A stretch of DNA of 64,000 bases from Escherichia coli (GCF_003019035.1 NZ_CP027447.1); one strand, 5' to 3'; positions 44,877 to 60,069 are shown, counted from the stretch's first letter. Translations and numbers: made by a program. Notes: a model not told the origin generated them from the sequence alone.

Positions 44877-46675
44877 TAGTAGACATCTCGCTGATAACGG
44901 CGCTCTACGCGCAGCTCACTTAAAAATTCATCCGCCGCTTCGGTGTCCATGCCACCAAATTCGGCAATCACTTCCAGAAGTGCCTGTTCAACGTCTTTCG
45001 CCATGCGATTAGCGTCGCCGCAGACATAAATGTGGGCACCGTCATTGATCCAGCGCCACAGCTCTGCGCCCTGTTCGCGCAGTTTGTCTTGTACGTAAAC
45101 TTTTTCTTTTTGATCGCGCGACCAGGCAAGATCGATGCGGCTCAATACGCCTTCTTTCACGTAGCGCTGCCACTCCACCTGGTAGAGGAAATCTTCCGTA
45201 AAGTGCGGGTTGCCAAAGAACAACCAGTTTTTACCCGGCGCTTCGTCAGCAGCACGTTGCTGCATAAAGGCGCGGAACGGCGCAATACCGGTGCCTGGGC
45301 CAATCATAATCACCGGGGTTTCCGGGTTGGCTGGCAGGCGGAAGTTGTCGTTATGTTCGATAAAGACGCGAACTTCGCCCTCTTCTTCCACACGATCCGC
45401 GAGGAAACTAGAGGCACCACCGGCACGGGCGCGGCCTTCCACGTCGTAACGCACCACACCAACGGTGACGTGTACTTCGTTCTCGACTTCCGCCTGCGAG
45501 GAGGCGATGGAATACAGGCGCGGCGTCAGCGGGCGCAGCAAGTTAATGAGGGCTTCAGCGTCAAGCTGTGCCGGAGAGAAACGCACCATGTCAACAATCG
45601 GCGTCGTCGCGGCGTAATGCTGCAACTTCGCTTTATCGCCCACCAGCGGCAGCAGCGTTTCGCTGCGGGTAAGCGTGGCATAGTTCTCAACAATGTTGGC
45701 GGTGTTGACGGTCAGTTCGAAGTGCCACTGTAGCGCTTCGTTCAGAGGCAACGTTTTGCCCTCAACGGTGACAGGTTCATCGCCTTTCAGCCACAGCAGT
45801 TCGACAAGTTCTTTCACCAGTGCCGGATCGTTCTGATACCAGACGCCCAGCGCGTCACCCGGCTGGTAACGCAGGCCCGAGTCACCTAAGTCAATTTCGA
45901 TATGGCGAACGTCTTTTTCAGAGTTACGCCCGGTAATTTTCTGGTTAACAGAGAGGCTCGCCACCAGCGGCGCGTCTTTGCTATACGGGCTGGTGTGGAT
46001 TTCATTTACCGTGCCAGTAGCGACGGATTGCGAAGGTGCCGCGACAGGCGCACGCGATTTAAGCGCATCAACCACGCGGGCGCGCCACTCGCTGGCAGCG
46101 GCCTGATATTCAACATCGGCATCGACACGGTCGAGCAGGCGTTCACCGCCCAGTTCCGCCAGCTTGCTGTCAAAATCTTTCCCGGACTGGCAGAAAAATT
46201 CATAAGAGCTATCGCCGAGGCTAAACACGGCAAATGCGGTGTTTTCCAGCTTCGGCGCTTTTTTGGAGAACAGGAACTTATGCAGCGCGACGGCTTCTTC
46301 CGGCGGTTCCCCTTCCCCTTGCGTTGACGTCACCACGATAAGCAGTTTTTCGCTGGCGATTTGTTTGAATTTATAGTCGCCCGCGTTCACCAGCTTAACG
46401 TTTAGTTTTGCCGCTAATAAGTCATCGCGTAACGCTTCAGCAACCCGGCGCGCATTGCCGGTTTGCGAGGCGGAGATAATAGTTATACCCGGCATTTCTG
46501 CGGCGGGCGCTGGCGTCGCTGCAAGCGCAGCAGGCTGCTGGTTGAGCACGCCCCAGAAATAGCCAGAAACCCAGGCAAGCTGGGTGGGAGTTAAATCGGT
46601 CGTGGCCGCCTGAAGGCGTGCCAGTTGCTCCGGGTTCAACGGAAGCAACGCGGAAGGTGAGACCTGTGTCGTCAT
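44876..46675 (-). CDS. cysJ: Sulfite reductase flavoprotein alpha subunit CysJ (599 aa)
   Basis: Flavodoxin + FAD/NADPH reductase domains, 599 aa. Confidence 0.96.
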
Positions 46676-46990
46676 GCGTCGTTATGTTCCAGTAAGCAAA
46701 GCTGTTTCTGCGCCCTGTCAGCGCCCATAAAACAGAAGAGAAGGTAAGGTTAACGGGGTGAACGGTGTGGATTAAAGACGGGATAGCGATAACTAATAAC
46801 CAAATCGACTAACCTGTTTTAGCAATAGTCTTTAACAACAAAATAGATTACTCAACCCAATGAAAAACAAGTGAATTTAGCCAATCATTAAGATAAATCA
46901 GCGATTTTGCGCAACAAAGTCGTTTTAGATAATGCGAAAAAACAGCCTTTCCGGTACTCTACGGCGGTTTTATCGTCCTGTAGAGAAATT

Positions 46991-47356
46991 ATGATGTCCA
47001 CCACGTTATTTAAAGATTTCACCTTCGAAGCCGCTCACCGCTTACCACACGTCCCGGAAGGACATAAATGTGGTCGCCTGCACGGGCATTCCTTTATGGT
47101 GCGACTGGAAATTACCGGGGAAGTCGATCCGCATACGGGCTGGATTATCGATTTCGCTGAACTGAAAGCAGCGTTTAAACCAACCTATGATCGCCTCGAT
47201 CACTATTATCTCAATGATATTCCTGGCCTGGAAAACCCGACCAGCGAGGTTTTAGCAAAATGGATTTGGGATCAGGTTAAACCGGTTGTTCCGCTGTTAA
47301 GTGCGGTGATGGTGAAAGAAACCTGCACCGCAGGTTGCATCTATCGCGGCGAATGA
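46991..47356 (+). CDS. queD: 6-carboxy-5,6,7,8-tetrahydropterin synthase QueD (121 aa)
   Basis: Starts [18 protein letters not shown], conserved CxxxHGH motif. Confidence 0.92.
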
Positions 47357-47433
47357 TAAGAGTGTGTCGGCGGTCAATTTCCCTTAAGTAACGCTATGTT
47401 AGGGTGTTGCGCTCTGGATATCTGGGGCATGAC

Positions 47434-48705
47434 ATGGAAGACGACTGCGACATTATTATTATTGGTGCCGGTATAGCAGGCACCGCTTGTGCTTTACGCT
47501 GCGCGCGGGCAGGTTTATCCGTTCTGTTACTGGAACGCGCTGAAATTCCCGGCAGTAAAAACCTTTCCGGCGGGCGTTTATATACCCAGGCGCTCGCGGA
47601 ACTCCTCCCTCAGTTTCACCTGACCGCGCCTCTTGAACGACGCATCACTCACGAAAGTCTTTCTCTGCTAACGCCGGATGGCGCAACGACGTTTTCCAGC
47701 TTACAGCCCGGCGGTGAATCCTGGAGCGTATTACGTGCACGGTTCGATCCGTGGCTGGTTGCCGAAGCCGAAAAAGAAGGTGTCGAATGCATCCCTGGTG
47801 CGACGGTAGATGCGCTGTATGAAGAAAACGGCAGGGTGTGTGGTGTCATTTGTGGTGACGATATTCTCCGCGCCCGTTATGTGGTGCTGGCAGAAGGTGC
47901 CAACAGCGTCCTGGCTGAGCGTCACGGGTTAGTGACTCGTCCTGCTGGCGAAGCGATGGCGTTGGGGATCAAAGAAGTGCTGTCGCTGGAAACATCCGCT
48001 ATTGAAGAACGTTTTCATCTGGAGAATAACGAAGGCGCAGCGTTGCTGTTCAGCGGCGGGATCTGTGATGACTTACCCGGCGGCGCATTTCTTTATACTA
48101 ATCAACAAACGCTCTCGTTAGGGATTGTTTGCCCGCTCTCTTCCCTTACGCAAAGTCGTGTTCCGGCAAGCGAGCTGCTGGCTCGCTTTAAAACGCATCC
48201 GGCAGTGCGCCCGCTTATCAAAAACACGGAATCACTGGAGTATGGTGCGCATCTGGTGCCAGAAGGTGGCTTGCACAGTATGCCGGTGCAATACGCCGGT
48301 AACGGCTGGCTGCTGGTGGGCGATGCGTTGCGCAGTTGCGTCAATACCGGAATTTCCGTGCGCGGCATGGATATGGCGCTGACTGGCGCGCAGGCGGCGG
48401 CACAAACGCTGATAAGCGCCTGCCAGCACCGCGAGCCGCAAAATCTGTTTGCGCTTTATCATCACAACGTAGAGCGCAGCCTGCTATGGGATGTTCTACA
48501 ACGTTATCAGCATGTTCCGGCGCTTTTGCAACGCCCTGGATGGTACCGTGCGTGGCCTGCGTTAATGCAGGATATTTCCCGCGATTTATGGGATCAGGGT
48601 GATAAACCTGTTCCACCGCTGCGCCAGTTATTCTGGCGTCATTTACGTCGTCATGGCCTGTGGCATCTGGCGGGCGATGTTATCAGGAGTCTGCGATGTC
48701 TGTAG
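47434..48705 (+). CDS. ygcN: FixC-like FAD-dependent oxidoreductase (ETF-quinone oxidoreductase family, 423 aa)
   Basis: N-terminal dinucleotide-binding motif DIIIIGAGIAG; start chosen at MEDDCD. Confidence 0.85.
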   Translation: MEDDCDIIIIGAGIAGTACALRCARAGLSVLLLERAEIPGSKNLSGGRLYTQALAELLPQFHLTAPLERRITHESLSLLTPDGATTFSSLQPGGESWSVLRARFDPWLVAEAEKEGVECIPGATVDALYEENGRVCGVICGDDILRARYVVLAEGANSVLAERHGLVTRPAGEAMALGIKEVLSLETSAIEERFHLENNEGAALLFSGGICDDLPGGAFLYTNQQTLSLGIVCPLSSLTQSRVPASELLARFKTHPAVRPLIKNTESLEYGAHLVPEGGLHSMPVQYAGNGWLLVGDALRSCVNTGISVRGMDMALTGAQAAAQTLISACQHREPQNLFALYHHNVERSLLWDVLQRYQHVPALLQRPGWYRAWPALMQDISRDLWDQGDKPVPPLRQLFWRHLRRHGLWHLAGDVIRSLRCL

Positions 48706-48956
48706 CCCGTAATCTCTGGCGCGTTGCCGATGCGCCGCACATTGTTCCGGCTGACTCCGTTGAGCGTCAGACGGTACAACGGTTGATTAACGCCTGTCCG
48801 GCTGGTCTTTTTTCGCTCACACCAGAAGGTGACTTACGTATTGACTATCGCAGTTGCCTGGAGTGTGGCACCTGCCGTTTGCTGTGCGACGAAAAAACAC
48901 TACAACAGTGGCGCTATCCACCTTCCGGATTCGGCATCACCTACCGCTTTGGATAA
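48696..48956 (+). CDS. ygcO: FixX-like ferredoxin (86 aa)
   Basis: Cys cluster CLECGTCRLLCD; overlaps ygcN end. Confidence 0.82.
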   Translation: MSVARNLWRVADAPHIVPADSVERQTVQRLINACPAGLFSLTPEGDLRIDYRSCLECGTCRLLCDEKTLQQWRYPPSGFGITYRFG

Positions 48957-48972
48957 ATAACAAGGATAATTT

Positions 48973-49548
48973 ATGTCCCTCTTACACCTGCTCCGCCAGA
49001 ATCCGGTGATTGCTGCCGTTAAAGATAATGCCAGCCTGCAACTGGCAATCGATTCTGAATGCCAGTTTATTTCCGTGCTATACGGCAATATCTGCACCAT
49101 CAGTCAAATCGTCAAAAAGATTAAAAACGCCGGGAAATATGCCTTTATTCATGTCGATTTGCTGGAAGGCGCGTCAAATAAAGAAGTGGTGATTCAGTTT
49201 TTGAAACTGGTGACTGAGGCGGACGGCATTATCAGTACCAAAGCCTCAATGTTGAAAGCGGCAAGAGCGGAAGGTTTTTTCTGTATTCATCGCCTGTTTA
49301 TTGTTGATTCAATTTCGTTTCACAACATTGATAAGCAAGTTGCGCAATCGAATCCGGATTGTATTGAGATCCTGCCAGGCTGTATGCCCAAAGTGCTGGG
49401 CTGGGTGACGGAGAAAATCCGCCAACCGCTGATTGCTGGCGGGCTGGTGTGCGATGAAGAAGATGCGCGTAATGCGATTAACGCGGGTGTTGTGGCGCTT
49501 TCCACCACGAATACTGGGGTCTGGACGTTAGCGAAAAAATTGCTTTGA
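48973..49548 (+). CDS. ygcP: GlpP-family glycerol-3-phosphate-responsive antiterminator-like regulator (191 aa)
   Basis: 191-aa ORF of GlpP/G3P-antiterminator family length and architecture. Confidence 0.8.
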   Translation: MSLLHLLRQNPVIAAVKDNASLQLAIDSECQFISVLYGNICTISQIVKKIKNAGKYAFIHVDLLEGASNKEVVIQFLKLVTEADGIISTKASMLKAARAEGFFCIHRLFIVDSISFHNIDKQVAQSNPDCIEILPGCMPKVLGWVTEKIRQPLIAGGLVCDEEDARNAINAGVVALSTTNTGVWTLAKKLL

Positions 49549-49583
49549 CGGGATAATCGTAACAAGTTGAATTTGGTGTGATT

Positions 49584-49656
49584 TGTAGGCTGCACGCCAC
49601 ATCCGACATTCAGCGCCTGATGCGACGCTTGACGCGTCTTATCAGGCCTACAAGTC
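49584..49656. repeat. REP/BIME element between convergent ygcP and ygcQ
   Basis: GCCTGATGCGACGCTTGACGCGTCTTATCAGGCCTACAAG plus inverted partial copy upstream. Confidence 0.6.
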
Positions 49657-49695
49657 CCCAGGCCAGAACCGTAGGCAGGATCATCCGGCAACACG

Positions 49696-50556
49696 TTATT
49701 GGCAATCTGCGTGAATGTTTGTCACCAGTGCCTCCAGCACCACTTTCCAGTCATCAACCACGCCAACATCTGCCTGTGAAAATACCGCTGCGCTGGCGTC
49801 ATGATTAATCGCCACCACAAACTTGCTATTGCATACGCCCGCCATTAACGCTGCTGCGCCAGAAGCGCCAACAACAATACACACCTCAGGTGCCAGCAGA
49901 TGTCCGGAAATACCAATCACTTTTTCAGCATCAACGCCACCGTTCATCACTCGCGCCCGACTGTAGCCCACTTCGGCTCCCAGCTTTTCTGCCAGCATAG
50001 CGATTTCCTGGTTATCTGCCTCTCCGCCCTGCCCCACCACCAGCACCCGTCTGGCCTCAGCTAATGGGTCACGGGTAACATTTTTCAGATCCTCTGTGCT
50101 AACCAGCCAGTCGGGAAGCGCGCCGGGGACAATGTTCAGTTGCTGCATACCAGAGGGCAATGTGGCGTTTTTCACTGCTCCCGCCTGGCGGGCAAGGGAA
50201 AGGCATAGCGGGCGTTTTTCTGTTTGCAGCGTCGCCGTTAGCGCATTTCCCCAGTGGGATTTGCGCACGCTTACGGTTGAAATATCTAACGAAGTCACCT
50301 GGCAGATGCTTGCACCATGTAAACGCCAGGCCAGCCGTGTCGACAGTTCATCACCAAACGTTCCCGGCGGAAAGAGAACAACGTCCGCTGGCGTTCGCTG
50401 CCACTGTTCCACCAGCGCATCCAGCACCTGTTCCGCCACTACGGGCTGAGGTTCAATCTGCCAGTGTGCCAGGGTACAACCGCTGAAATCCTGTTCTGCC
50501 AGACAGCTCGCTATTGCGGCATTCTCCTGATTTATTGTCACAATTGCGATATTCAT
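49696..50556 (-). CDS. ygcQ: Electron transfer flavoprotein alpha subunit-like (FixB family, 286 aa)
   Basis: ETF alpha C-terminal FAD-binding region; start at MNIAIVTIN. Confidence 0.85.
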   Translation of the reverse strand: MNIAIVTINQENAAIASCLAEQDFSGCTLAHWQIEPQPVVAEQVLDALVEQWQRTPADVVLFPPGTFGDELSTRLAWRLHGASICQVTSLDISTVSVRKSHWGNALTATLQTEKRPLCLSLARQAGAVKNATLPSGMQQLNIVPGALPDWLVSTEDLKNVTRDPLAEARRVLVVGQGGEADNQEIAMLAEKLGAEVGYSRARVMNGGVDAEKVIGISGHLLAPEVCIVVGASGAAALMAGVCNSKFVVAINHDASAAVFSQADVGVVDDWKVVLEALVTNIHADCQ

Positions 50557-51338
50557 GGCTGCATCCTTTGGCGTAAATAGTCCTGCCATAGCTTTTGCGC
50601 TTTTTCTGCTACCGTTTGCCCATCAATCAGCGTCGCTCCGCGTTGTTGCTCTGCTCTTGCCAGTTGCAGACACAGCATCGCTGGCGATTCGGCAGCAACA
50701 GTTTTACGGATAATTTCTGCTTTCCCCGCCGCCATTCGCTGACGCATTCCCGGTACTGGCAAGGCCACTTCACCACACTGACGCACGGCAATCACCGCAG
50801 GCAAGCGAACCCGGCAACAGCGCAGCCCGTTTTCAGTACGCTGTTCAAGGGTGATAAACGGCGCGTCGAGAGTAAAACGCTCCACCTGGGTGAAGCAGGG
50901 CCAGCCCAGCATTTCCGCCAGCAAAAATGGCGTTTGCCCATTCTGCCCTTCGCTGCTTTGGCAGCCGGTAATGATCAGATCCAGCGGATTCTGACGCTGC
51001 CATTCGGCAATATGGCGAGCGACAAATTCCGGCGCAAAGCGCAGATCTGCCACCGTCTCCAGCAATACAGCGTCCTCAAACCCAAGAGCCATGAGATAGC
51101 GCAGCCAGTGCAACGCCCGTTCATCCCCCATGCTCAACGCGGTTAAAGACATCGGCGTACCGTTTTTTCTCTGCGCTAACAGAAGCGCGGCAGCCGCCTG
51201 TTCATCAGCACCGAGTAAACTTCGCAGCAGCGAAACATCCGGTCCGCAATTACCCTGAGCCGCCACCTGCCACTCTTTTTCTGCCAGCATTCCGGCATCC
51301 GGTTCGGCTTTAAACGCTAACAGAATGTTCATTCGCAC
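50553..51338 (-). CDS. ygcR: Electron transfer flavoprotein beta subunit-like (FixA family)
   Basis: ETF beta-like ORF overlapping ygcQ start; exact start uncertain. Confidence 0.83.
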   Translation of the reverse strand: MRMNILLAFKAEPDAGMLAEKEWQVAAQGNCGPDVSLLRSLLGADEQAAAALLLAQRKNGTPMSLTALSMGDERALHWLRYLMALGFEDAVLLETVADLRFAPEFVARHIAEWQRQNPLDLIITGCQSSEGQNGQTPFLLAEMLGWPCFTQVERFTLDAPFITLEQRTENGLRCCRVRLPAVIAVRQCGEVALPVPGMRQRMAAGKAEIIRKTVAAESPAMLCLQLARAEQQRGATLIDGQTVAEKAQKLWQDYLRQRMQP

Positions 51339-52647
51339 CTCCTACATTTCCCGCCGCCACCAGCGGGAGTGCTTTGGTTTCTGGCGCCCATAACCAGGTA
51401 ACAACAAAACCAACCAACAACACTGCCGCCAGAAGCAATAAAGTGACCGGCATCCCCCACTGCGCCAGCACCCACGGCAGCAGGCCAGTACTTACCGCCG
51501 CCCCCAACCGACTCATGGCGGTGGCAAAACCGACGCCCAGCGAGCGAATGTCAGTAGGAAAACTTTCCGCAGGCAAAATGCCCACCAGATTACTGACTGC
51601 AGAAATGGTGGTGCTGAAGAGAACAAAAAGCAGCAGCGTTAATGAACTGCCGGAAGGCAAACAGGCCATCACTACCAGCGTTGCCGCCAGCAGCAAAAAA
51701 CTTCCCAGCAAAAACTTGCGATGTGCCAGCAGGTGCGTCAGAACTAATCCCAGCAGCGCGCCCACAATTAACAACGCATTAAGCATCAGGCTGGCGGTCA
51801 GCGCATCCTCCAGACCAATAGTCTGGGCGATGGTCGGCAGCCAGGTATAAATCACAAACCATGGGATTACGAGGCAGACAAAGAAGACGCTGTTAAACGC
51901 CGTGCGTCGCCAGTAGCGCGAAGAGAACAAGGTTTTGATGTGTTTATGGGTCGCCGCTGCCACTTCATCGCCCAGTAAAACATGTGGCCCCAAATAGCGA
52001 TGCACAATAGCGTGAGCTTCAGCAAAACGTCCCTGACGCATCAGCCAGCGTGGCGATTCTGGCGTTCCCCAGCGTAATAACGTAATCAACAATGCGGGCA
52101 GAGCTGCCGATGCCAACAGCCAGCGCCAGGCCTCCGGGTTTTCGGAAATAAAGTGATGTCCAGCAATACTTGCCAGCACATAGCCTACGGTCCACACCAC
52201 GCTGAATGCGCCCAGCAAAATACCGCGATGGCGGCGCGGGGAAAATTCAGCCAGCAAGGTGTGACCGACTGAGTAATCGCCTCCCAGACCAATGCCGATC
52301 AAAATGCGCAATCCAATAAGATGCTCTGGCGTGGTGGCAAAAAATTGCAAGAACGAAGCGAGCGTAATCAGCATAAAACTGAAGGTGAAAATTTTTTGCC
52401 GCCCGATATGGTCGGAGATCCACCCCAAAACCAGGCTGCCAAGAAACAAACCAAGTAACGCCGAGCCGCCGATCATTCCCGCCATAAACGGCGTCAGTTG
52501 CATGGCTGGAGTAAGCTGAATAATGGCGTAACCAATGACGCCGAGGACATAACCGTCGGTCAGGTGCGCACCGAAAGTGAGCGCAGCAATTCGACAGTGA
52601 AAACGGTTAAGCGGTAAATCATCCATTCGCACCGGTGAAGTGTTCAT
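51310..52647 (-). CDS. ygcS: MFS transporter (445 aa)
   Basis: 12-TM MFS topology; start at MNTSPVRMDDLPLNRFH. Confidence 0.83.
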   Translation of the reverse strand: MNTSPVRMDDLPLNRFHCRIAALTFGAHLTDGYVLGVIGYAIIQLTPAMQLTPFMAGMIGGSALLGLFLGSLVLGWISDHIGRQKIFTFSFMLITLASFLQFFATTPEHLIGLRILIGIGLGGDYSVGHTLLAEFSPRRHRGILLGAFSVVWTVGYVLASIAGHHFISENPEAWRWLLASAALPALLITLLRWGTPESPRWLMRQGRFAEAHAIVHRYLGPHVLLGDEVAAATHKHIKTLFSSRYWRRTAFNSVFFVCLVIPWFVIYTWLPTIAQTIGLEDALTASLMLNALLIVGALLGLVLTHLLAHRKFLLGSFLLLAATLVVMACLPSGSSLTLLLFVLFSTTISAVSNLVGILPAESFPTDIRSLGVGFATAMSRLGAAVSTGLLPWVLAQWGMPVTLLLLAAVLLVGFVVTWLWAPETKALPLVAAGNVGGANEHSVSV

Positions 52648-52740
52648 CTTTACCCCTTCATTGTCCGGTAATAAGAACGGCTTCTCGCCTGAGAAGCCGA
52701 AAAGGCAACGCCCCGACATCACGGGACGCTGCCTGACACA

Positions 52741-54195
52741 TTATTTTTCAATCGGATAGATAGTACCCGTATTCATAATGCCGTTAGGATCGAACTGCTT
52801 TTTCAGCCCTTCCAGCAACGCCCACGCGCTGCCGTGTTCCAGTTTGCTCCAGTGAACGCGATGTTTACCGATACCGTGGTGGTGCACCATCGAACCGCCG
52901 AGGCGAATGGTTTCTTCGCAGATGATTTTGTTGAGCGGATTGTGGTACTTGTCGATTTCCTCTTCCGGCTTACAGTCAACGACGTTGTAGTCGTAGACGA
53001 AGTACATGTTGGTGCCGTTCTGATAGCTATGAGAGGAGTGACCGCCCAGCATGGTGATGTCGTCGGCGTGCGCGAACTCGGTACGAATACGGTTAATAAC
53101 GCTTTCGTAGATTTCGTGGATGCAGCTCCAGCAGCCGGACACTTCGGTGGTAAAGCCCATGTTGCCGGTTTTGAGGATCTGCACACGTTCAGCGGCCACT
53201 TTATCCGGCCCCCAGTTCAGGTGATTAAACCAGGTTTCGATCAGCTTGCTGTCCACGCGCTGGCATTGCGGGTAACGTGCCACGATTTCAGCAATCCCTT
53301 CGCCCGTCGCCTTCGCAATGCGAGGGTTACCTTCAGCCATAAAGATCAGCACACATTTACCATCGGCAAAATGGGTGAAGTGTTGGGTGCCATCTTCAGC
53401 GTCATACAAACGAGCGATCGACGGACGATACCCTTCCACCATGATTTCACGCAGGATGTTGAAGCCGGTTTTCATGTCTTCCAGGATATAGCCGTAGAAG
53501 AGGTTGTTTTCCGGGGTGAACTTAAAGATTTTCACTGTTACTTCAGTGATATAGCACAATGCACCTTCGTTGCCGATGATAATGTGACGAATGTCCGGGC
53601 CTGCCGCGCGGCGTGGTACGTTTTTAATACGTGTGACGGTGCCATCAGCCAATACTGCTTCCAGACCAACGACCATATCTTCGATTGCGCCGTAGAGTGT
53701 GGAGAACTGCCCGATACTGCGGGTTGCTACCAGGCCGCCCATCTGCGCCAGCGGTTTTGATTGCGGTGAATGCCCCGTGGTGTAACCTTTTTCACGCAAC
53801 GTGTTTTCCAGCACCTCCAGCGGAACACCACATTGCGCCGTGGCCTGCATATTCTCAATATCAATATTAATGATTTGATTCATGGCAGAGCCGTCGAGCA
53901 CCACCGAGTTTTCCACAACGGTTTCCAGCCCACCTTCGGTAGCGGAAGCACCGGTACGCGGCACACCGTTAATTTTGTGCGCATTCATAAAATTCAGCAC
54001 ACGGGATACTTGTTCTGTGGAACCGAGTTTTACGACCGATGCCGGAATCGGCAAAGTATAAATGCCATGAATATCCGGAAATTTGCGAAAACGGTCAATA
54101 CTGTTTTTCTTTAATACTGTTTCATCGGTAATTACGCGATCTGCACCAACAATTTCCTTTAGCTGGTCGACAATCGCTGCGCGGGATAAAGACAT
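52741..54195 (-). CDS. ygcU: FAD-linked oxidase (PCMH/GlcD-like, alkyl-DHAP synthase family, 484 aa)
   Basis: FAD-binding PCMH-type domain sequence, 484 aa. Confidence 0.88.
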   Translation of the reverse strand: MSLSRAAIVDQLKEIVGADRVITDETVLKKNSIDRFRKFPDIHGIYTLPIPASVVKLGSTEQVSRVLNFMNAHKINGVPRTGASATEGGLETVVENSVVLDGSAMNQIINIDIENMQATAQCGVPLEVLENTLREKGYTTGHSPQSKPLAQMGGLVATRSIGQFSTLYGAIEDMVVGLEAVLADGTVTRIKNVPRRAAGPDIRHIIIGNEGALCYITEVTVKIFKFTPENNLFYGYILEDMKTGFNILREIMVEGYRPSIARLYDAEDGTQHFTHFADGKCVLIFMAEGNPRIAKATGEGIAEIVARYPQCQRVDSKLIETWFNHLNWGPDKVAAERVQILKTGNMGFTTEVSGCWSCIHEIYESVINRIRTEFAHADDITMLGGHSSHSYQNGTNMYFVYDYNVVDCKPEEEIDKYHNPLNKIICEETIRLGGSMVHHHGIGKHRVHWSKLEHGSAWALLEGLKKQFDPNGIMNTGTIYPIEK

Positions 54196-54264
54196 AGTAA
54201 TTCCTTCCTGATAATAAAAATGGAATAGTCATTAATAAGAGAAAACAGAAACCACCGTTATGGA

Positions 54265-55050
54265 TTAGCGCACTAAATAACCGCCATCGACCACTAATAA
54301 ATGCCCGTTAACATAATTTGAAGCCGGACTTGCGAGGAATACGGCTGCGCCCATTAAATCCTGAGTATCACCCCAACGGTTTGCCGGTATATGATCAAGA
54401 ACGCGCTGATTGGTTTCTGGATTACTGCGTGTTGCCAGCGTAATATCGGTTGCATAATATCCCGGGGCAATACCATTCACCTGAATATTATATTGACCTA
54501 ATTCATCGCAATAGGCTTTGGTGAATCCAGCAAGAGCATGTTTAGTGGCAGAATAAGCAGGTGACCATTGTCCACCTAAGTAAGAGAACAATGAACAGAT
54601 ATTAATGATTTTACCGCTTTTCTGCGGGATCATAATTTTTGCTGCTTCGTAGCTTAACTCGAATGCGGCGGTCAGGTTCACATCAATCATCGGGTCCCAG
54701 TCGGCACGACCGAAGTCCAGCACCTTATTCAGCTTACAAATACCGGCATTGTTAACCAGAATATCTACGGTACCGAAGCGCTCACAGCAGGCAGCGATAA
54801 TCTTCTGCGGCGCGCCTTCTGCGGTGATATCCACCTGCATAAAATCAACTTCGACACCCTGTTTTTCAATCATTTCCTTTGTTTCGCCGTTATCTTTGAC
54901 GAAGCTAGGGATAAAGACATTTGCGCCAGCTTTGGCCAACGCCATGGCAAATGCCTGGCCTAAACCGCTATTCCCGCCGGTAACAATTGCTGTTTTACCT
55001 TTCAGGGAGAAAAAATCCATTGAGAACGCATTGAGAGATTCGATTGACAT
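54265..55050 (-). CDS. ygcW: Short-chain dehydrogenase/reductase (KduD/gluconate 5-dehydrogenase-like, 261 aa)
   Basis: TGGNSGLG cofactor motif and YxxxK catalytic motif. Confidence 0.9.
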   Translation of the reverse strand: MSIESLNAFSMDFFSLKGKTAIVTGGNSGLGQAFAMALAKAGANVFIPSFVKDNGETKEMIEKQGVEVDFMQVDITAEGAPQKIIAACCERFGTVDILVNNAGICKLNKVLDFGRADWDPMIDVNLTAAFELSYEAAKIMIPQKSGKIINICSLFSYLGGQWSPAYSATKHALAGFTKAYCDELGQYNIQVNGIAPGYYATDITLATRSNPETNQRVLDHIPANRWGDTQDLMGAAVFLASPASNYVNGHLLVVDGGYLVR

Positions 55051-55074
55051 AGTTAGCTCCAATTTCCGTAAGGC

Positions 55075-55120
55075 AAAAAAAAGAAAGGTAACTTCCCCCG
55101 CGAGAGGGAAGTTACCTTTC
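55075..55120 (-). terminator. Strong intrinsic terminator-like hairpin (15-bp perfect stem GAAAGGTAACTTCCC / GGGAAGTTACCTTTC, 8-nt loop) followed by U8 on minus strand, located in the 5' leader ~25 nt upstream of ygcW start; candidate attenuator
   Basis: Inverted repeat 55083-55097 / 55106-55120 and A8 run 55075-55082 on plus strand read directly. Confidence 0.6.
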
Positions 55121-55366
55121 TCATTATCTCTGGTAACTGGATATAATTTTTAGCATAAGGGCATAAGCGCTAATGTGATCGTAATCACAGTGTGATATTC
55201 GTATTATCAAATAATTTTAAAAAGCAGAAGCGTGACTACTCTCACACAACACCACTGCTTTCCATGTTATTTCTTATTGCAATTACTAGAGACCTGAGAA
55301 AAGTAATCCACCTGAAAGGGCGGCTTACTTTTCTCTTTTTTTGTCTATTACAAATGGGAATACGAT

Positions 55367-56644
55367 ATGCAACACAACTCATATCGCCGTTGGATAACCC
55401 TCGCGATAATTAGTTTTAGCGGCGGCGTTAGTTTCGACCTGGCTTATTTACGTTATATTTATCAAATTCCCATGGCGAAATTTATGGGATTCAGCAATAC
55501 CGAGATAGGTTTAATAATGAGTACCTTTGGTATTGCAGCTATTATTCTTTATGCGCCCAGTGGCGTTATTGCCGATAAATTCTCACATCGCAAAATGATT
55601 ACTTCCGCGATGATCATTACCGGATTACTGGGTCTGTTAATGGCAACTTATCCACCGCTGTGGGTAATGCTCTGTATTCAGGTTGCCTTTGCGATAACGA
55701 CGATTTTAATGCTGTGGTCGGTGTCGATTAAAGCCGCATCGTTGCTGGGCGATCATAGCGAGCAAGGGAAAATTATGGGCTGGATGGAAGGGCTGCGCGG
55801 CGTCGGTGTAATGTCGCTGGCGGTGTTTACCATGTGGGTCTTTTCTCGCTTTGCACCGGATGACAGCGCCAGCCTGAAAACGGTCATTATCATCTACAGT
55901 GTGGTCTACATTTTATTGGGGATTCTGTGCTGGTTTTTTGTTAGCGATAACAACAACCTGCGCAATACCAATAACAAAGAAAAACAGTCATTCCAGCTTA
56001 GCGACATCCTGGCCGTTTTGCGCATCAGCACCACCTGGTATTGCAGCATGGTGATTTTTGGTGTCTTCACCATCTACGCCATTCTGAGTTACTCCACCAA
56101 CTATCTCACCGAAATGTACGGCATGTCGCTGGTGGCGGCGAGCTACATGGGGATTGTGATCAACAAAATATTCCGCGCGCTGTGTGGTCCACTTGGCGGC
56201 ATTATCACCACCTACAGTAAAGTGAAATCCCCTACCCGCGTGATCCAAATCCTTTCCGTACTCGGCTTGCTGGCGTTAACTGCCCTGCTCGTCACGAACT
56301 CTAACCCGCAATCGGTCGCGATGGGGATTGGCCTGATTTTACTGCTGGGATTCACCTGTTACGCCTCACGCGGGCTGTACTGGGCCTGCCCTGGCGAAGC
56401 GAGAACACCGTCTTACATTATGGGCACCACGGTAGGTATTTGTTCGGTGATTGGATTCCTGCCGGATGTCTTCGTTTACCCGATTATCGGCTACTGGCAA
56501 GACACCCTGCCCGCTGCAGAAGCCTACCGCAATATGTGGCTGATGGGCATGGCGGCGCTTGCCATGGTGATCGTCTTTACCTTTTTGCTGTTCCAAAAAA
56601 TTCGTACTGCTGATAGCGCCCCTGCTATGGCTAGCAGCAAGTAA
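55367..56644 (+). CDS. yqcE: MFS transporter (425 aa)
   Basis: Hydrophobic 12-TM ORF. Confidence 0.85.
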   Translation: MQHNSYRRWITLAIISFSGGVSFDLAYLRYIYQIPMAKFMGFSNTEIGLIMSTFGIAAIILYAPSGVIADKFSHRKMITSAMIITGLLGLLMATYPPLWVMLCIQVAFAITTILMLWSVSIKAASLLGDHSEQGKIMGWMEGLRGVGVMSLAVFTMWVFSRFAPDDSASLKTVIIIYSVVYILLGILCWFFVSDNNNLRNTNNKEKQSFQLSDILAVLRISTTWYCSMVIFGVFTIYAILSYSTNYLTEMYGMSLVAASYMGIVINKIFRALCGPLGGIITTYSKVKSPTRVIQILSVLGLLALTALLVTNSNPQSVAMGIGLILLLGFTCYASRGLYWACPGEARTPSYIMGTTVGICSVIGFLPDVFVYPIIGYWQDTLPAAEAYRNMWLMGMAALAMVIVFTFLLFQKIRTADSAPAMASSK

Positions 56645-56670
56645 GTCCAGAAAATTACAGGAGAAAAATC

Positions 56671-58149
56671 ATGTCGAAAAAATACATCATAGGGATTGAT
56701 GGCGGAAGTCAGAGCACAAAAGTGGTGATGTATGATCTGGAAGGTAATGTGGTTTGCGAAGGCAAAGGCTTATTGCAGCCGATGCACACGCCAGATGCCG
56801 ATACCGCAGAACATCCTGACGACGATTTATGGGCATCATTATGTTTTGCCGGTCACGATTTGATGAGTCAGTTTGCCGGAAATAAAGAAGATATTGTCGG
56901 CATTGGTCTGGGATCCATCCGTTGCTGCCGTGCGTTATTGAAAGCCGATGGCACACCAGCTGCGCCGTTGATTAGCTGGCAGGATGCACGCGTTACACGC
57001 CCTTACGAACATACGAATCCTGACGTGGCATATGTCACCTCTTTTTCGGGTTATCTGACGCATCGCTTAACCGGCGAGTTTAAAGACAATATCGCCAACT
57101 ATTTTGGTCAGTGGCCGGTGGATTATAAGACCTGGGCATGGAGCGAAGATACCGCGGTAATGGAGAAGTTTAATATTCCCCGACAGATGCTTTTTGATGT
57201 GCAAATGCCGGGCACTGTTCTTGGGCATATCACTCGTCAAGCCGCGCTGGCGACACATTTCCCGGCTGGGCTGCCGGTTGTTTGTACCACCAGTGATAAA
57301 CCGGTAGAAGCTCTGGGAGCCGGATTACTGGATGATGAAACGGCGGTGATTTCTCTTGGCACCTACATCGCGCTGATGATGAACGGTAAAGCACTGCCGA
57401 AAGATCCGGTAGCGTACTGGCCGATTATGTCTTCTATTCCGCAAACCTTGCTGTATGAAGGTTACGGTATCCGCAAAGGCATGTGGACGGTGAGCTGGCT
57501 ACGCGACATGCTAGGCGAGTCGTTAATTCAGGATGCCAAAGCACAGGATCTTTCACCGGAAGATTTGCTCAACAAAAAAGCGTCTTGTGTGCCGCCTGGC
57601 TGTAATGGTCTGATGACGGTGCTGGACTGGCTGACCAATCCGTGGGAACCATACAAACGCGGGATTATGATCGGCTTTGATTCCAGCATGGATTACGCAT
57701 GGATATATCGTTCGATACTGGAAAGCGTGGCGCTGACGCTGAAGAACAATTACGACAATATGTGTAATGAAATGAATCACTTTGCAAAGCATGTGATCAT
57801 TACTGGCGGCGGTTCGAACAGCGATCTGTTTATGCAGATTTTTGCCGACGTGTTCAACCTTCCGGCACGCCGTAACGCCATTAATGGTTGTGCAAGTCTG
57901 GGGGCAGCGATCAATACGGCGGTAGGTCTGGGGCTATACCCGGATTACGCAACGGCTGTCGACAAAATGGTTCGCGTGAAAGATATCTTTATGCCTGTTG
58001 AGAGCAACGCCAAACGCTACGACGCGATGAATAAAGGCATTTTCAAAGACCTAACCAAACACACTGATGTGATCCTGAAAAAATCGTATGAAGTGATGCA
58101 TGGTGAGCTGGGGAATGAAGATTCGATCCAGAGCTGGTCGAATGCGTAA
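56671..58149 (+). CDS. ygcE: FGGY-family carbohydrate kinase (492 aa)
   Basis: FGGY kinase N-terminal motif IGIDGGSQSTK, 492 aa. Confidence 0.9.
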   Translation: MSKKYIIGIDGGSQSTKVVMYDLEGNVVCEGKGLLQPMHTPDADTAEHPDDDLWASLCFAGHDLMSQFAGNKEDIVGIGLGSIRCCRALLKADGTPAAPLISWQDARVTRPYEHTNPDVAYVTSFSGYLTHRLTGEFKDNIANYFGQWPVDYKTWAWSEDTAVMEKFNIPRQMLFDVQMPGTVLGHITRQAALATHFPAGLPVVCTTSDKPVEALGAGLLDDETAVISLGTYIALMMNGKALPKDPVAYWPIMSSIPQTLLYEGYGIRKGMWTVSWLRDMLGESLIQDAKAQDLSPEDLLNKKASCVPPGCNGLMTVLDWLTNPWEPYKRGIMIGFDSSMDYAWIYRSILESVALTLKNNYDNMCNEMNHFAKHVIITGGGSNSDLFMQIFADVFNLPARRNAINGCASLGAAINTAVGLGLYPDYATAVDKMVRVKDIFMPVESNAKRYDAMNKGIFKDLTKHTDVILKKSYEVMHGELGNEDSIQSWSNA

Positions 58150-58196
58150 GTGAGGAAGACCGGGCGGGAAACTGCCCGGCCTGAACATACCTGAAT

Positions 58197-58334
58197 GGTT
58201 ATCCCCGCTGACGCGGGGAACATAAGTTCGACAACTTAAAAAATGATAACAAGTCCGGTTTATCCCCGCTGATGCAGGGAACATAATAAAAACTTTAACT
58301 AGTTCGGTTTATCCCTGTTTTTACAAGGAATATT
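58197..58334 (-). CRISPR. Degenerate CRISPR remnant: three decayed repeats (…GGGGAACAT, …GCAGGGAACAT, …CAAGGAATAT) with one 32-bp and one 20-bp spacer
   Basis: Repeat-like units at 58197-58224, 58257-58285, 58306-58334 with accumulating mismatches. Confidence 0.7.
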
Positions 58335-58786
58335 AACTACACTCGATGTCTTTAGAATAAAAGACAATACGAATCGCACTTTATCAATTTTCACTTAAAG
58401 TATGAACTGGATATCTTTATTCATAAGAACTATTCATCAACAGCCTATAGAGGCGGTTATGTAAAACCACTCATTAGCCTCAAAACAAAGACAAATTTCC
58501 AGATTTATTACTTAATCAATGAATAACAAGCTTAAAAAATACACTGTTATTCTAAAGAAAAAATTAACAGGCATTAATTAATATTAAAAAAATAATAGAT
58601 TAAAATTTCTTAACGGTTTAAGGATTATACAAATAACACTTTGATTAAATTTGATTTTTTGTATCGATAATTGTGAACTTATCTGGCATGGAGAACTATT
58701 TTGAACATGAGGTGTTATGTGGATATGTTGCTTATTACAAGTACAGCTAATATAAAAACTTGAGAAAGAGATAACGGGTTATATGG

Positions 58787-59059
58787 TGGTTTATCCCCGC
58801 TGGTGCGGGGAACTCTTGGCATAGGCGCTATAGCGGCGCTCTGTGTCCGGTTTATCCCCGCTGGCACGGGGAACTCGTTGGTGCCGTTGTTGTAACCGTA
58901 GAAACCGACGGTTTATCCCCGCTGACGTGGGGAACTCGCAGGTCAACACGGGCGATAAACCCGGCTGACCGGTTTATCCCCGCTGACGTGGGGAACTCGA
59001 TAAGCAGATTGCAGAACTACAGGCGAAGGACGGTTTATCCCCGCTGACGTGGGGAACTC
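58787..59059 (-). CRISPR. CRISPR array 2 (type I-E repeats, 5 repeats / 4 spacers of 32 bp); repeat variants ending AACTC; leader at high-coordinate end
   Basis: Repeats at 58787, 58848, 58909, 58970, 59031; R1 TGG…GCTGGTGCGGGG, R2 …GCTGGCACGGGG, R3-R5 …GCTGACGTGGGG. Confidence 0.93.
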
Positions 59060-59250
59060 TCTAAACATAACCTATTATTAATTAATGATTTTTTAAGCCA
59101 GTCACAATCTACCAACTTTACAGGATCACACAAACAACACATCCATTATGTTAAAGAACACTTAATCCATTGATTAAAAAAGTAAATATTTAAAATAACT
59201 CTATACCCACTAAAATCTACCAAACTTTACCGCAATAATTTTCACTCCAA
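59060..59250 (-). other. Putative leader of CRISPR array 2 (AT-rich, shares CAATCTACCAACT motif with array 1 leader)
   Basis: Motif at the same distance (~60 nt) from the last repeat in both arrays. Confidence 0.5.
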
Positions 59251-59397
59251 CGAAAAATTAACGCCACAGAATTTGTAGAGAATGATAATGATTAGCCCAG
59301 AATGGGCAAAATGGAGTTTTTTCAGAGGCGACAAAGAATATAAATAAGTGGAAGTCTTTACAGGTTCCACCCATTTATAACGCTTATAAATGTTTAA

Positions 59398-60069
59398 TCA
59401 GGCAATATTCAAATATTTATGTGTCTGCATCGACAAACGCCAGTTGCGCGCTATGCAGGTATCGATACATAAACGCGTAGCATCTTCCTTCTGGCTAATT
59501 GGCTGAAGTGCAATGACTCGCGGTTTATCATCGGTCAGCGTCGCAAGCAATTCATCCAGTGCTTCGATATCACGTACGCGTCCCACTGGATGCTTGATTT
59601 CGTTGGCTCGCTCCAGTGCCTGTGACAACACTTCATAGCCGCCGCGCATATTCAGCTTTGGCGATACGGTAACCCAGGTATTCGGTGTGCAGCGTACTTC
59701 ATGAGTACCACTGGTTTCGATCTGGCAGCTAAAACCGTTCTTTTCGAGCTGGTCAGTCAGTGGCAGCAAATCATGAATGCAAGGCTCACCACCCGTAATC
59801 ACCACATGCCGTGCGGTGTATCCCTGGCGACCAATGACAGCCAGCAAATCTTCACTGCTCGCAGCCCCCCACTTATCACTCTCTTTGGTCTTCGCCAGAA
59901 TGCTGAAAAGGGAAACTTCCCGATCCTCAAGCTTTTCCCAGGTGTGTTTGGTGTCGCACCAGGCACAGCCAACCGGGCATCCCTGTAAACGAATAAAAAT
60001 GGCGGGGACGCCGGTAAAGTAACCCTCACCTTGCAGGGTCTGGAACATCTCGTTAATCGGGTACTGCAT
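59398..60069 (-). CDS. queE: 7-carboxy-7-deazaguanine synthase QueE (radical SAM, 223 aa)
   Basis: Starts MQYPINEMFQTLQGEG, radical SAM Cys motif CPVGCAWCDT. Confidence 0.95.
   Translation of the reverse strand: MQYPINEMFQTLQGEGYFTGVPAIFIRLQGCPVGCAWCDTKHTWEKLEDREVSLFSILAKTKESDKWGAASSEDLLAVIGRQGYTARHVVITGGEPCIHDLLPLTDQLEKNGFSCQIETSGTHEVRCTPNTWVTVSPKLNMRGGYEVLSQALERANEIKHPVGRVRDIEALDELLATLTDDKPRVIALQPISQKEDATRLCIDTCIARNWRLSMQTHKYLNIA

Follow-up and report, generated by a model that had tools for sequence, protein, structure and literature searches.

Why should a strong intrinsic terminator stand immediately in front of a gene and not behind one? This question is raised by a 64,000-nt stretch of Escherichia coli DNA (GCF_003019035.1 NZ_CP027447.1; hereafter the window, whose numbering is used throughout), where a hairpin followed by eight U residues precedes the start codon of ygcW (54265–55050, minus strand; RefSeq coding sequence). 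An earlier note, made from the sequence alone, took this hairpin for an attenuator of the operon that starts with ygcW, governed by YgcP, a relative of the antiterminator GlpP. Our analysis indicates that the hairpin, together with a paralogous one on the plus strand before yqcE (55367–56644), is very probably a leader attenuator, and YgcP is proposed as the antiterminator of both.

Twin leaders before ygcW and yqcE

The intrinsic terminator of the ygcW leader (55075–55122, minus strand) is formed by the RNA GAGAAAGGUAACUUCCCUC-UCGC-GGGGGAAGUUACCUUUCUU (55122 to 55081), which folds into 19 pairs with a 4-nt loop and is directly followed by a T8 run (55082 to 55075). Counted by its perfect arms, the hairpin has 16 bp and an 8-nt loop. 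Its predicted energy is -30.6 kcal/mol (z = -7.8 versus shuffles), and its U-tract ends 24 nt before the ATG at 55050, in agreement with the distance of about 25 nt given in the earlier note. A Shine-Dalgarno sequence, GGAG (55060 to 55057), lies 6 nt before the ATG, the two together occupying 55048–55060 on the minus strand. The plus strand does not carry a U-run after the hairpin, so a bidirectional terminator was rejected and the element is unidirectional. It had also been claimed that no minus-strand gene ends upstream of the hairpin, and this holds: the next one is queE (59398–60069), situated beyond a CRISPR (clustered regularly interspaced short palindromic repeats) array.

The sequence GGTAACT at 55132–55138, which had been proposed as part of an alternative antiterminator, reads AGUUACC on the RNA and is complementary to GGUAACU (55116 to 55110), the start of the terminator 5′ arm. 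The resulting candidate antiterminator (55110–55138, minus strand), which resembles a ribonucleic antiterminator (RAT) hairpin, consists of AGUUACC, the loop AGAGAUAAUGAGAAA and GGUAACU, with 7 bp and a predicted energy of -6.4 kcal/mol. The leader thus reads GUUACC-AGAGAUAAUGAGAAA-GGUAAC-UUCCC..., and the terminator 5′ arm overlaps both the antiterminator 3′ strand and a GAGAAA box.

A second, paralogous leader, missed by the earlier note, is found on the plus strand before yqcE and can be aligned with the ygcW leader. It reads AUUACU-AGAGACCUGAGAAA-AGUAAU followed by GAGAAAAGUAA...UUACUUUUCUC-U7 (55282–55342), with a candidate antiterminator hairpin at 55282–55307 (-1.4 kcal/mol) and a terminator at 55296–55342 (-20.5 kcal/mol, z = -5.5). 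The stems of the twins differ in a compensatory manner, GUUACC/GGUAAC in ygcW versus AUUACU/AGUAAU in yqcE. Since the antiterminators (-6.4 and -1.4 kcal/mol) are so much weaker than the terminators (-30.6 and -20.5 kcal/mol), they could not compete unaided, and a factor would be needed.

Both leaders are situated in the 316-bp divergent intergenic region between ygcW and yqcE, where RefSeq annotates no feature. A scan of positions 46000–60000 against Rfam gave no match in this region at E ≤ 1, riboswitch families included. The window contains two copies of the composite box TTACYAGAGA-N-GAGAAARGTAA, versus 0.00 expected, and a covariance model, built from 57 leaders after a regular-expression search, matches the window only at the ygcW leader (55066–55139, 82 bits) and the yqcE leader (55280–55350, 80 bits).

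Leader RNAs and their promoters

Ends of short RNAs from both leaders have been mapped in two published data sets, which the earlier note had also missed. By Term-seq of cells grown in lysogeny broth (LB) to an optical density of 0.4 (Adams et al. 2021, PMC7815308), two 3′ ends fall in the region, both classed as "orphan" with no function given. The first (K-12 coordinate 2900311, minus strand) is 38 nt before the ygcW ATG, with an intrinsic-terminator score of 15.8 and a Rho score of 0.50, outside Rho regions; the second (2900556, plus strand) is 36 nt before yqcE, has a score of 11.4 and is not Rho-dependent (PMC7815308). On the window these ends correspond to ~55087 in the ygcW leader and ~55332 in the yqcE leader. 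A premature 3′ end had been expected at ~55075; a Rho-independent one does exist, at ~55087 and not at the expected position. The published 800-nt window counts give no termination efficiency.

In the second data set, two "potential novel sRNAs" were catalogued between ygcW and yqcE, ecr2774 (minus strand, 2898315–2898388, 73 nt) and ecr2775 (plus strand, 2898527–2898590, 63 nt), listed as "simple... single extended stem-loop; perhaps REP-like" (that is, like repetitive extragenic palindromic, REP, elements) and with no function (Romero et al. 2014, PMC4681348 supplement, U00096.2 coordinates). Their 5′ ends are 139 nt apart, which is the spacing of the two predicted transcription starts. This gives internal support to the coordinate offset between U00096.2 and U00096.3 at the locus, which we take to be 1978 and which was used to place both RNAs. 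The converted 5′ ends fall at ~55142 (ecr2774) and 55281 (ecr2775), 1–4 nt before the RUUACY boxes, that of ecr2774 being ~4 nt before AGUUACC. Their 3′ ends, based on coverage (Romero et al.), are at or just beyond the U-tracts. The leader RNAs hence extend over 55070–55142 (minus strand) and 55281–55343 (plus strand), each supported by the RNA-seq catalogue, Term-seq and a covariance-model match; a Cappable-seq supplement lists nothing close to the site. Both leaders are real, short, terminated RNAs in uninduced cells, and ecr2774, ecr2775 and the "orphan" 3′ ends are the same molecules, uninterpreted in either source paper and read here as terminated attenuator leaders.

The catalogue entries could also be taken at face value: ecr2774 and ecr2775 would then be stand-alone small RNAs (sRNAs) acting in trans and ended by constitutive terminators, with ygcW and yqcE controlled elsewhere. 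They have their own 5′ and 3′ ends, the Term-seq ends are classed as "orphan", and a promoter plus a terminator, as present here, are features of an independent sRNA gene; other attenuators are known whose terminated leader acts in trans. We consider this unlikely, in view of where the terminators lie. They are 24–25 nt before the start codons, with no promoter-like element in between, and this distance is ≤25 nt in all species; for ygcW, the 24 nt from U-tract to ATG leave no room for another promoter. The order promoter-leader-gene is kept in ~50 species and the leader of Firmicutes is found before the first gene only. Besides, a role in trans would supplement an attenuator function, not substitute for it. 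According to the earlier note, a minus-strand sRNA ending at the hairpin would speak against its model. Formally, ecr2774 is such an RNA, yet it does not refute the model, because an attenuator in its off state makes precisely this RNA.

Upstream of each leader there is a site for CRP and a predicted promoter. CRP site 1, TGTGATCGTAATCACA (55174–55189), is centred at ~-40 to -41.5 from the ygcW leader start, and a predicted extended -10 element, TG-C-TAAAAA (55147–55155, minus strand), was deduced from conservation and spacing. CRP-like site 2, CGTGACTACTCTCACA (55231–55246), is centred at ~-41.5 to -42.5 from the yqcE leader start, and is followed by another predicted extended -10 element, TG-T-TATTTC (55265–55273, plus strand), deduced from the conserved TGnTA. 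A CRP site ~41 bp before the start, combined with a -10 element, is the geometry of class II CRP promoters, and site 2 is likewise at class II distance. Binding to site 1 has been observed in vivo by chromatin immunoprecipitation (ChIP) in enterotoxigenic E. coli (PMC4287617) and in vitro by footprinting, with a Kd of 1.7 nM (K-12 2900412; PMC12871828). These ChIP and footprint studies name only site 1 for the ygcW-yqcE region; the position of site 2, which like site 1 is absent from the earlier note, is conserved across genera. The yqcE-ygcE genes are listed as CRP-activated (PMC8085971). Nearly every enterobacterial leader is preceded, at a constant distance, by a CRP-like site and TGnTA, with TGnTAnnnn 7–8 nt before the leader start. 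Because this conserved promoter is just upstream and short RNAs were mapped from the start to the hairpin, the latter is a leader terminator and not one at the 3′ end of a gene, as had been proposed.

A sigma-70-like sequence, TTCTCA-18-TATAAT (55118–55147, plus strand), overlaps the ygcW terminator and faces yqcE, and was predicted as the yqcE promoter in Ishihama's SELEX (systematic evolution of ligands by exponential enrichment) paper. This assignment is unsupported, the mapped 5′ end of the yqcE leader being ~130 nt further downstream.

Conservation and covariation of the leaders

We collected the loci around YgcP relatives, taking one genome per species (n=65), in which the covariance model identified 89 leaders at E < 1e-4. 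Their hosts include Escherichia, Citrobacter, Klebsiella, Enterobacter, Yokenella, Mixta, Pluralibacter and Buttiauxella, as well as Serratia, Rahnella, Ewingella, Budvicia, Limnobaculum, Pantoea, Erwinia and Izhakiella. Outside the Enterobacterales, a Thalassobacillus leader scored 52.9 bits, and five Listeria species and one Bacillus gave weaker matches with a consistent position. The E. coli proteins were mapped onto the loci and the sequences upstream of the genes inspected. Within the Enterobacterales, a leader precedes ygcW in 51/52 loci and yqcE in 50/51, and the internal gene ygcU in none. The Firmicutes have single operons with a leader before the first gene only, in the order leader-ygcU-ygcP-transporter-ygcW-ygcE in Listeria and leader-ygcW-ygcE-ygcU, with ygcP divergent, in Thalassobacillus. 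Every locus with the leader also has a PF04309 gene, all loci having been fetched through ygcP. Judged from sequence comparison, the conserved module is ygcP, the leader, ygcU, ygcW, ygcE and a transporter.

The single exception among the Enterobacterales has its two leaders fused into one hairpin (L033:13882-13955, Limnobaculum eriocheiris). Here, the ygcW-yqcE spacer is only ~130 nt long, and its one hairpin is bidirectional, with A- and T-runs on its flanks; neither 5′ boxes nor promoters are left, and the locus appears decayed or rewired. Another record, titled Chryseobacterium sp. 18061 (L029), contains a complete enterobacterial ygc locus, with ygcP, ygcU and ygcW products showing 88–93% protein identity to those of E. 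coli, and is probably contaminated or mislabelled.

A motif-first scan of metagenomes with the pattern TAGAGA-N2-6-GAGAWAAGYRAC returned at least 120 stretches and was swamped by chance matches. Ten of the matches listed were flagged for a terminator-like continuation, with true leaders only in L099 and L159, and the matches listed included one true operon, with the leader before ygcU-ygcP-...; the covariance model found none at E ≤ 0.01 in the first 80 stretches. That operon, recovered independently of the protein, is the one unbiased case of association with ygcP that the scan provides. The element occurs in a median of two places per E. coli genome, both consistent with the ygc locus, and none on plasmids.

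Substitutions in the terminator preserve its pairing. Between 92 and 93% of the cells in the alignment are paired, versus 50–71% in slid controls, and 7–8 pairs are changed on both sides. G-U pairs occur on the transcribed strand only, for instance UG in 48, GU in 22 and GU in 13 sequences at three pairs. As these would be A.C on the other strand, the selected object is RNA and not a DNA palindrome. This bears on the possibility that the palindromes act as DNA, either as the operator of a transcription factor or as REP-like elements, for which the perfect inverted repeat and the wording "perhaps REP-like" (PMC4681348) could be invoked. Apart from the strand-specific G-U pairs, the hairpin tips vary with the pairing kept, a U-tract always follows, and the two places per E. 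coli genome, with none on plasmids, are a low copy number; a DNA operator or REP element was consequently rejected, and is highly improbable.

The antiterminator (RUUACY/RGUAAY) follows the same pattern in 87 distinct leaders, which were aligned to the terminator model and hence not fitted to the antiterminator. Of its cells, 93.9% are paired, versus 20–46% in slid controls, in support of the antiterminator that the earlier note had suggested. Pairs 3-37 (GC in 64 sequences, AU in 21) and 8-31 (UA in 61, CG in 22) covary, and column 31, the Y partner in both alternative helices, changes in step with both. One leader (L025) displays a three-way compensatory change, GUUGCC / GGCGAC / GUCGCC, and the antiterminator stem of Listeria is GUUGCU/AGCGAC. 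The loop boxes GAGA and GAGAAA, as well as the lower terminator stem, are invariant in the alignments, which indicates recognition by a factor.

YgcP as the proposed antiterminator

The gene ygcP (48973–49548, plus strand), ~5.5 kb from the leaders, codes for the sole regulator-like protein of the cluster according to the gene map. As the earlier note had it, YgcP belongs to the GlpP family: it matches Pfam PF04309 (G3P_antiterm) over the full model (1-173 of 173, E = 1.6e-62), and has solved homologues in PDB 3KTS (E = 7e-28) and 1VKF. In B. subtilis, GlpP with glycerol-3-phosphate causes antitermination at the leader terminators of glpD, glpFK and glpTQ, and the glpD 5′ untranslated region (UTR) alone transfers GlpP regulation to foreign promoters (PMC9604022, PMC10573289). 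This UTR reads ...ACGGUC-CUGAGAUGAGGAGA-GACC-ACAGC...GCUGUUGUGGUCUC-UUUUU, so that the terminator follows on from a small hairpin whose loop is GAGAU-N3-GAGA, the hairpin 3′ strand and the last GAGA being the beginning of the terminator 5′ arm. The layout and loop core of GGUC-CUGAGAUGAGGAGA-GACC in glpD and GUUACC-AGAGAUAAUGAGAAA-GGUAAC in ygcW are alike, the ygc loop being GAGAU-N3-GAGAAA. In true glycerol loci, where glpP lies beside glpK and glycerol-3-phosphate (G3P) oxidase genes, the three best matches to the ygc model (E = 0.0014-0.015) are in the leader before the G3P-oxidase genes, and on inspection these loci have tandem GAGA boxes abutting terminators. The comparative data, with a leader that travels with ygcP across two phyla and resembles that of glpD in loop and layout, support at the sequence level the link with YgcP that had been suggested.

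The likeness to the glp system of B. subtilis extends to the whole arrangement: the gene of the PF04309 protein accompanies those of the pathway, the short 5′ leader has an intrinsic terminator, the promoter is subject to catabolite control, and the pathway includes an FGGY kinase and a flavin adenine dinucleotide (FAD) dehydrogenase. YgcE would correspond to GlpK as an FGGY kinase, and YgcU to GlpD as an FAD oxidoreductase with electron-transfer flavoprotein (ETF) partners. On the other hand, the ygc host is Gram-negative and its catabolite control is exerted by CRP and not CcpA; its twin leaders form a divergent pair; its regulon does not serve glycerol and has in addition a KduD-like short-chain dehydrogenase/reductase (SDR) and major facilitator superfamily (MFS) transporters; and the closing stem is of 6–7 bp, versus 4 bp in glpD.

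Other families of proteins that act on leaders were also compared. Proteins of the BglG/SacY type, as in the E. coli bgl operon, stabilise a RAT hairpin of ~30 nt that overlaps the 5′ arm of the leader terminator, which permits conditional read-through into a catabolic operon, and the ygc leaders are alike in layout. Those proteins have CAT-PRD domains, whereas YgcP contains only PF04309; the ygc system lacks the phosphorylation logic of the phosphotransferase system (PTS) and PRD, and its leaders lack sequence similarity to the RAT. With no other regulator in the cluster, membership of the BglG/SacY type was discarded. TRAP and HutP of B. subtilis read repeated GAG/UAG triplets in leaders, TRAP promoting termination. 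By analogy, the short single-stranded purine repeats of the ygc leaders (GAGA ... GAGAAA) are as might be expected for a multimeric protein, but TRAP and HutP are unrelated proteins and the ygc leaders have only two boxes, in a hairpin loop.

Loop nucleotides that are invariant across phyla, and a terminator/antiterminator layout typical of riboswitches, could equally fit leaders that work without protein, a metabolite binding the 30-nt hairpin and stabilising the antiterminator. We regard this as rather improbable: there is no Rfam match, the candidate aptamer has only a 6-bp stem and a 14–15-nt loop, the homologous glpD leader genetically needs GlpP (PMC9604022), and a PF04309 gene is in every locus. 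A regulated attenuator might also respond to a factor other than YgcP, whose binding is only predicted, that is, to another RNA-binding protein or to ribosomes on an upstream open reading frame (uORF). Such a uORF exists in this strain, with 23 codons (MRKVTSLSRGKLPFFFLPYGNWS) from an AUG at 55124, in the antiterminator loop, to a UAA at 55053 (minus strand), 2 nt before the ygcW ATG. The yqcE leader lacks its AUG, as do many orthologous leaders, and the difference between T8 in this strain and T9 in K-12 alters its frame, breaking it in K-12. Leader-peptide attenuation was rejected, as the uORF is not conserved, and the cluster has no second conserved regulator gene; a factor other than YgcP is therefore unlikely.

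In the model that we propose, two back-to-back CRP-dependent promoters would each give rise to a leader of ~60–70 nt ending in a terminator just before the ribosome binding site. By default, the strong terminator would fold and transcription would yield just the short leader RNA that was detected in LB cultures. The first 30 nt could alternatively form a stem of 6–7 bp (RUUACY/RGUAAY) with GAGA-N-GAGAAA in its loop, and the two structures would compete, the antiterminator 3′ strand and the GAGAAA box being the start of the terminator 5′ arm. YgcP loaded with a pathway intermediate, in parallel to GlpP and glycerol-3-phosphate, would bind the hairpin and its loop and block the terminator, so that RNA polymerase would read into ygcWUSRQ and yqcE-ygcE. 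The FGGY kinase YgcE probably supplies the effector as its phosphorylated product, a reasonable assumption because the ygc pathway parallels glycerol catabolism. The data establish the terminator, the promoter elements in the sequence, the short RNAs, the conserved and covarying pairing of both alternative helices and the presence of ygcP nearby, while YgcP binding, its effector and regulated read-through are those parts of the model that we infer; as a whole, with CRP-dependent promoters and with leaders in which termination is avoided only when YgcP, bound to its effector, holds the 5′ hairpin, the model is probable. We would class the ygc leaders as a new case of GlpP-type antitermination, as yet uncurated, with a non-glycerol regulon in Enterobacterales.

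Several observations weigh against the proposed switch. The RNAs mapped by Term-seq stop at ...GUUACC and ...ACUUUU, 4–10 nt within the 3′ arm, and do not reach the U-tract, for which exonucleolytic 3′ trimming through the A-U-rich stem base would be our guess. The yqcE antiterminator has a very weak stem, and in four leaders the closing pair is mismatched (C.A). Most of the covariation separates a few paralogue or lineage classes, and so reflects few independent events, and all loci were collected via ygcP, which makes the co-occurrence of leader and ygcP partly a matter of design. The likeness to GlpP targets consists of one experimentally anchored sequence and weak covariance-model matches. 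Finally, our literature searches found no data on ygcP deletions or leader fusions, no experiment with YgcP and the leaders, and no inducer or read-through condition.

The gene cluster and its significance

The gene map is the RefSeq annotation transferred from a matching record (100% identity over the 601 bp queried). The ygc cluster comprises ten genes and is found in ~93% of complete E. coli genomes. On the plus strand are ygcN (47434–48705), ygcO (48696–48956) and ygcP, followed on the minus strand by ygcQ (49696–50556), ygcR and ygcS, both between ygcQ and ygcU, ygcU (52741–54195) and ygcW; after the intergenic region are yqcE and ygcE (56671–58149), on the plus strand. One proposed regulated operon would be ygcW-ygcU-ygcS-ygcR-ygcQ (49696–55050, minus strand), where gene gaps are ≤69 nt or genes overlap and a leader precedes only the first gene; the other, yqcE-ygcE (55367–58149, plus strand), is proposed from the gene map and leader placement. 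The products include a KduD-like SDR (YgcW), a GlcD-like FAD oxidase with ETF proteins (YgcU), the FGGY kinase YgcE and MFS transporters.

Other elements were noticed in the surroundings. An ORF-internal Term-seq 3′ end (K-12 2892741, plus strand; window ~47510) is situated early in ygcN (Adams et al., PMC7815308), the first gene of the YgcP-encoding operon, and might mean premature termination in ygcNOP. The gap between ygcP and ygcQ contains palindromes, gcctgatgcgacgc...gcgtcttatcaggcc (49565–49648, plus strand), similar to REP elements or bacterial interspersed mosaic elements (BIMEs), with a sub-threshold match to Rfam naRNA4 (39.3 bits versus a gathering score of 59.5). In the gap between ygcE and queE, RefSeq annotates a CRISPR repeat region (~58787–59059); Tandem Repeats Finder reports nothing there, as expected with spacers between the repeats.

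The ygc cluster, of the sugar type and hitherto without known function or regulation, now has a concrete and testable candidate control mechanism, in which two anonymous short RNAs and an "orphan" terminator become a defined module of CRP promoter, RAT-like hairpin, terminator and candidate trans factor. Read-through of the 70-nt leader offers a simple reporter for seeking the pathway inducer. The comparative data also provide a sequence and structure consensus for the RNA targets of the GlpP family; Rfam has no curated consensus of this kind. Protein-mediated antitermination switches are very few in E. coli K-12, bgl being the textbook case. More tentatively, a pair of GAGA boxes presented in a hairpin loop next to the terminator arm, as in the ygc leaders and their Firmicute relatives, may be what the PF04309/GlpP family as a whole recognises on RNA. 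In this reading, the abundant terminated leaders ecr2774 and ecr2775 might in addition act in trans or titrate YgcP, and YgcP would join BglG as a second dedicated RNA-binding antiterminator in E. coli K-12, its signal being a phosphorylated polyol or sugar that arises as an intermediate of the YgcE/YgcU/YgcW pathway and has so far escaped notice.

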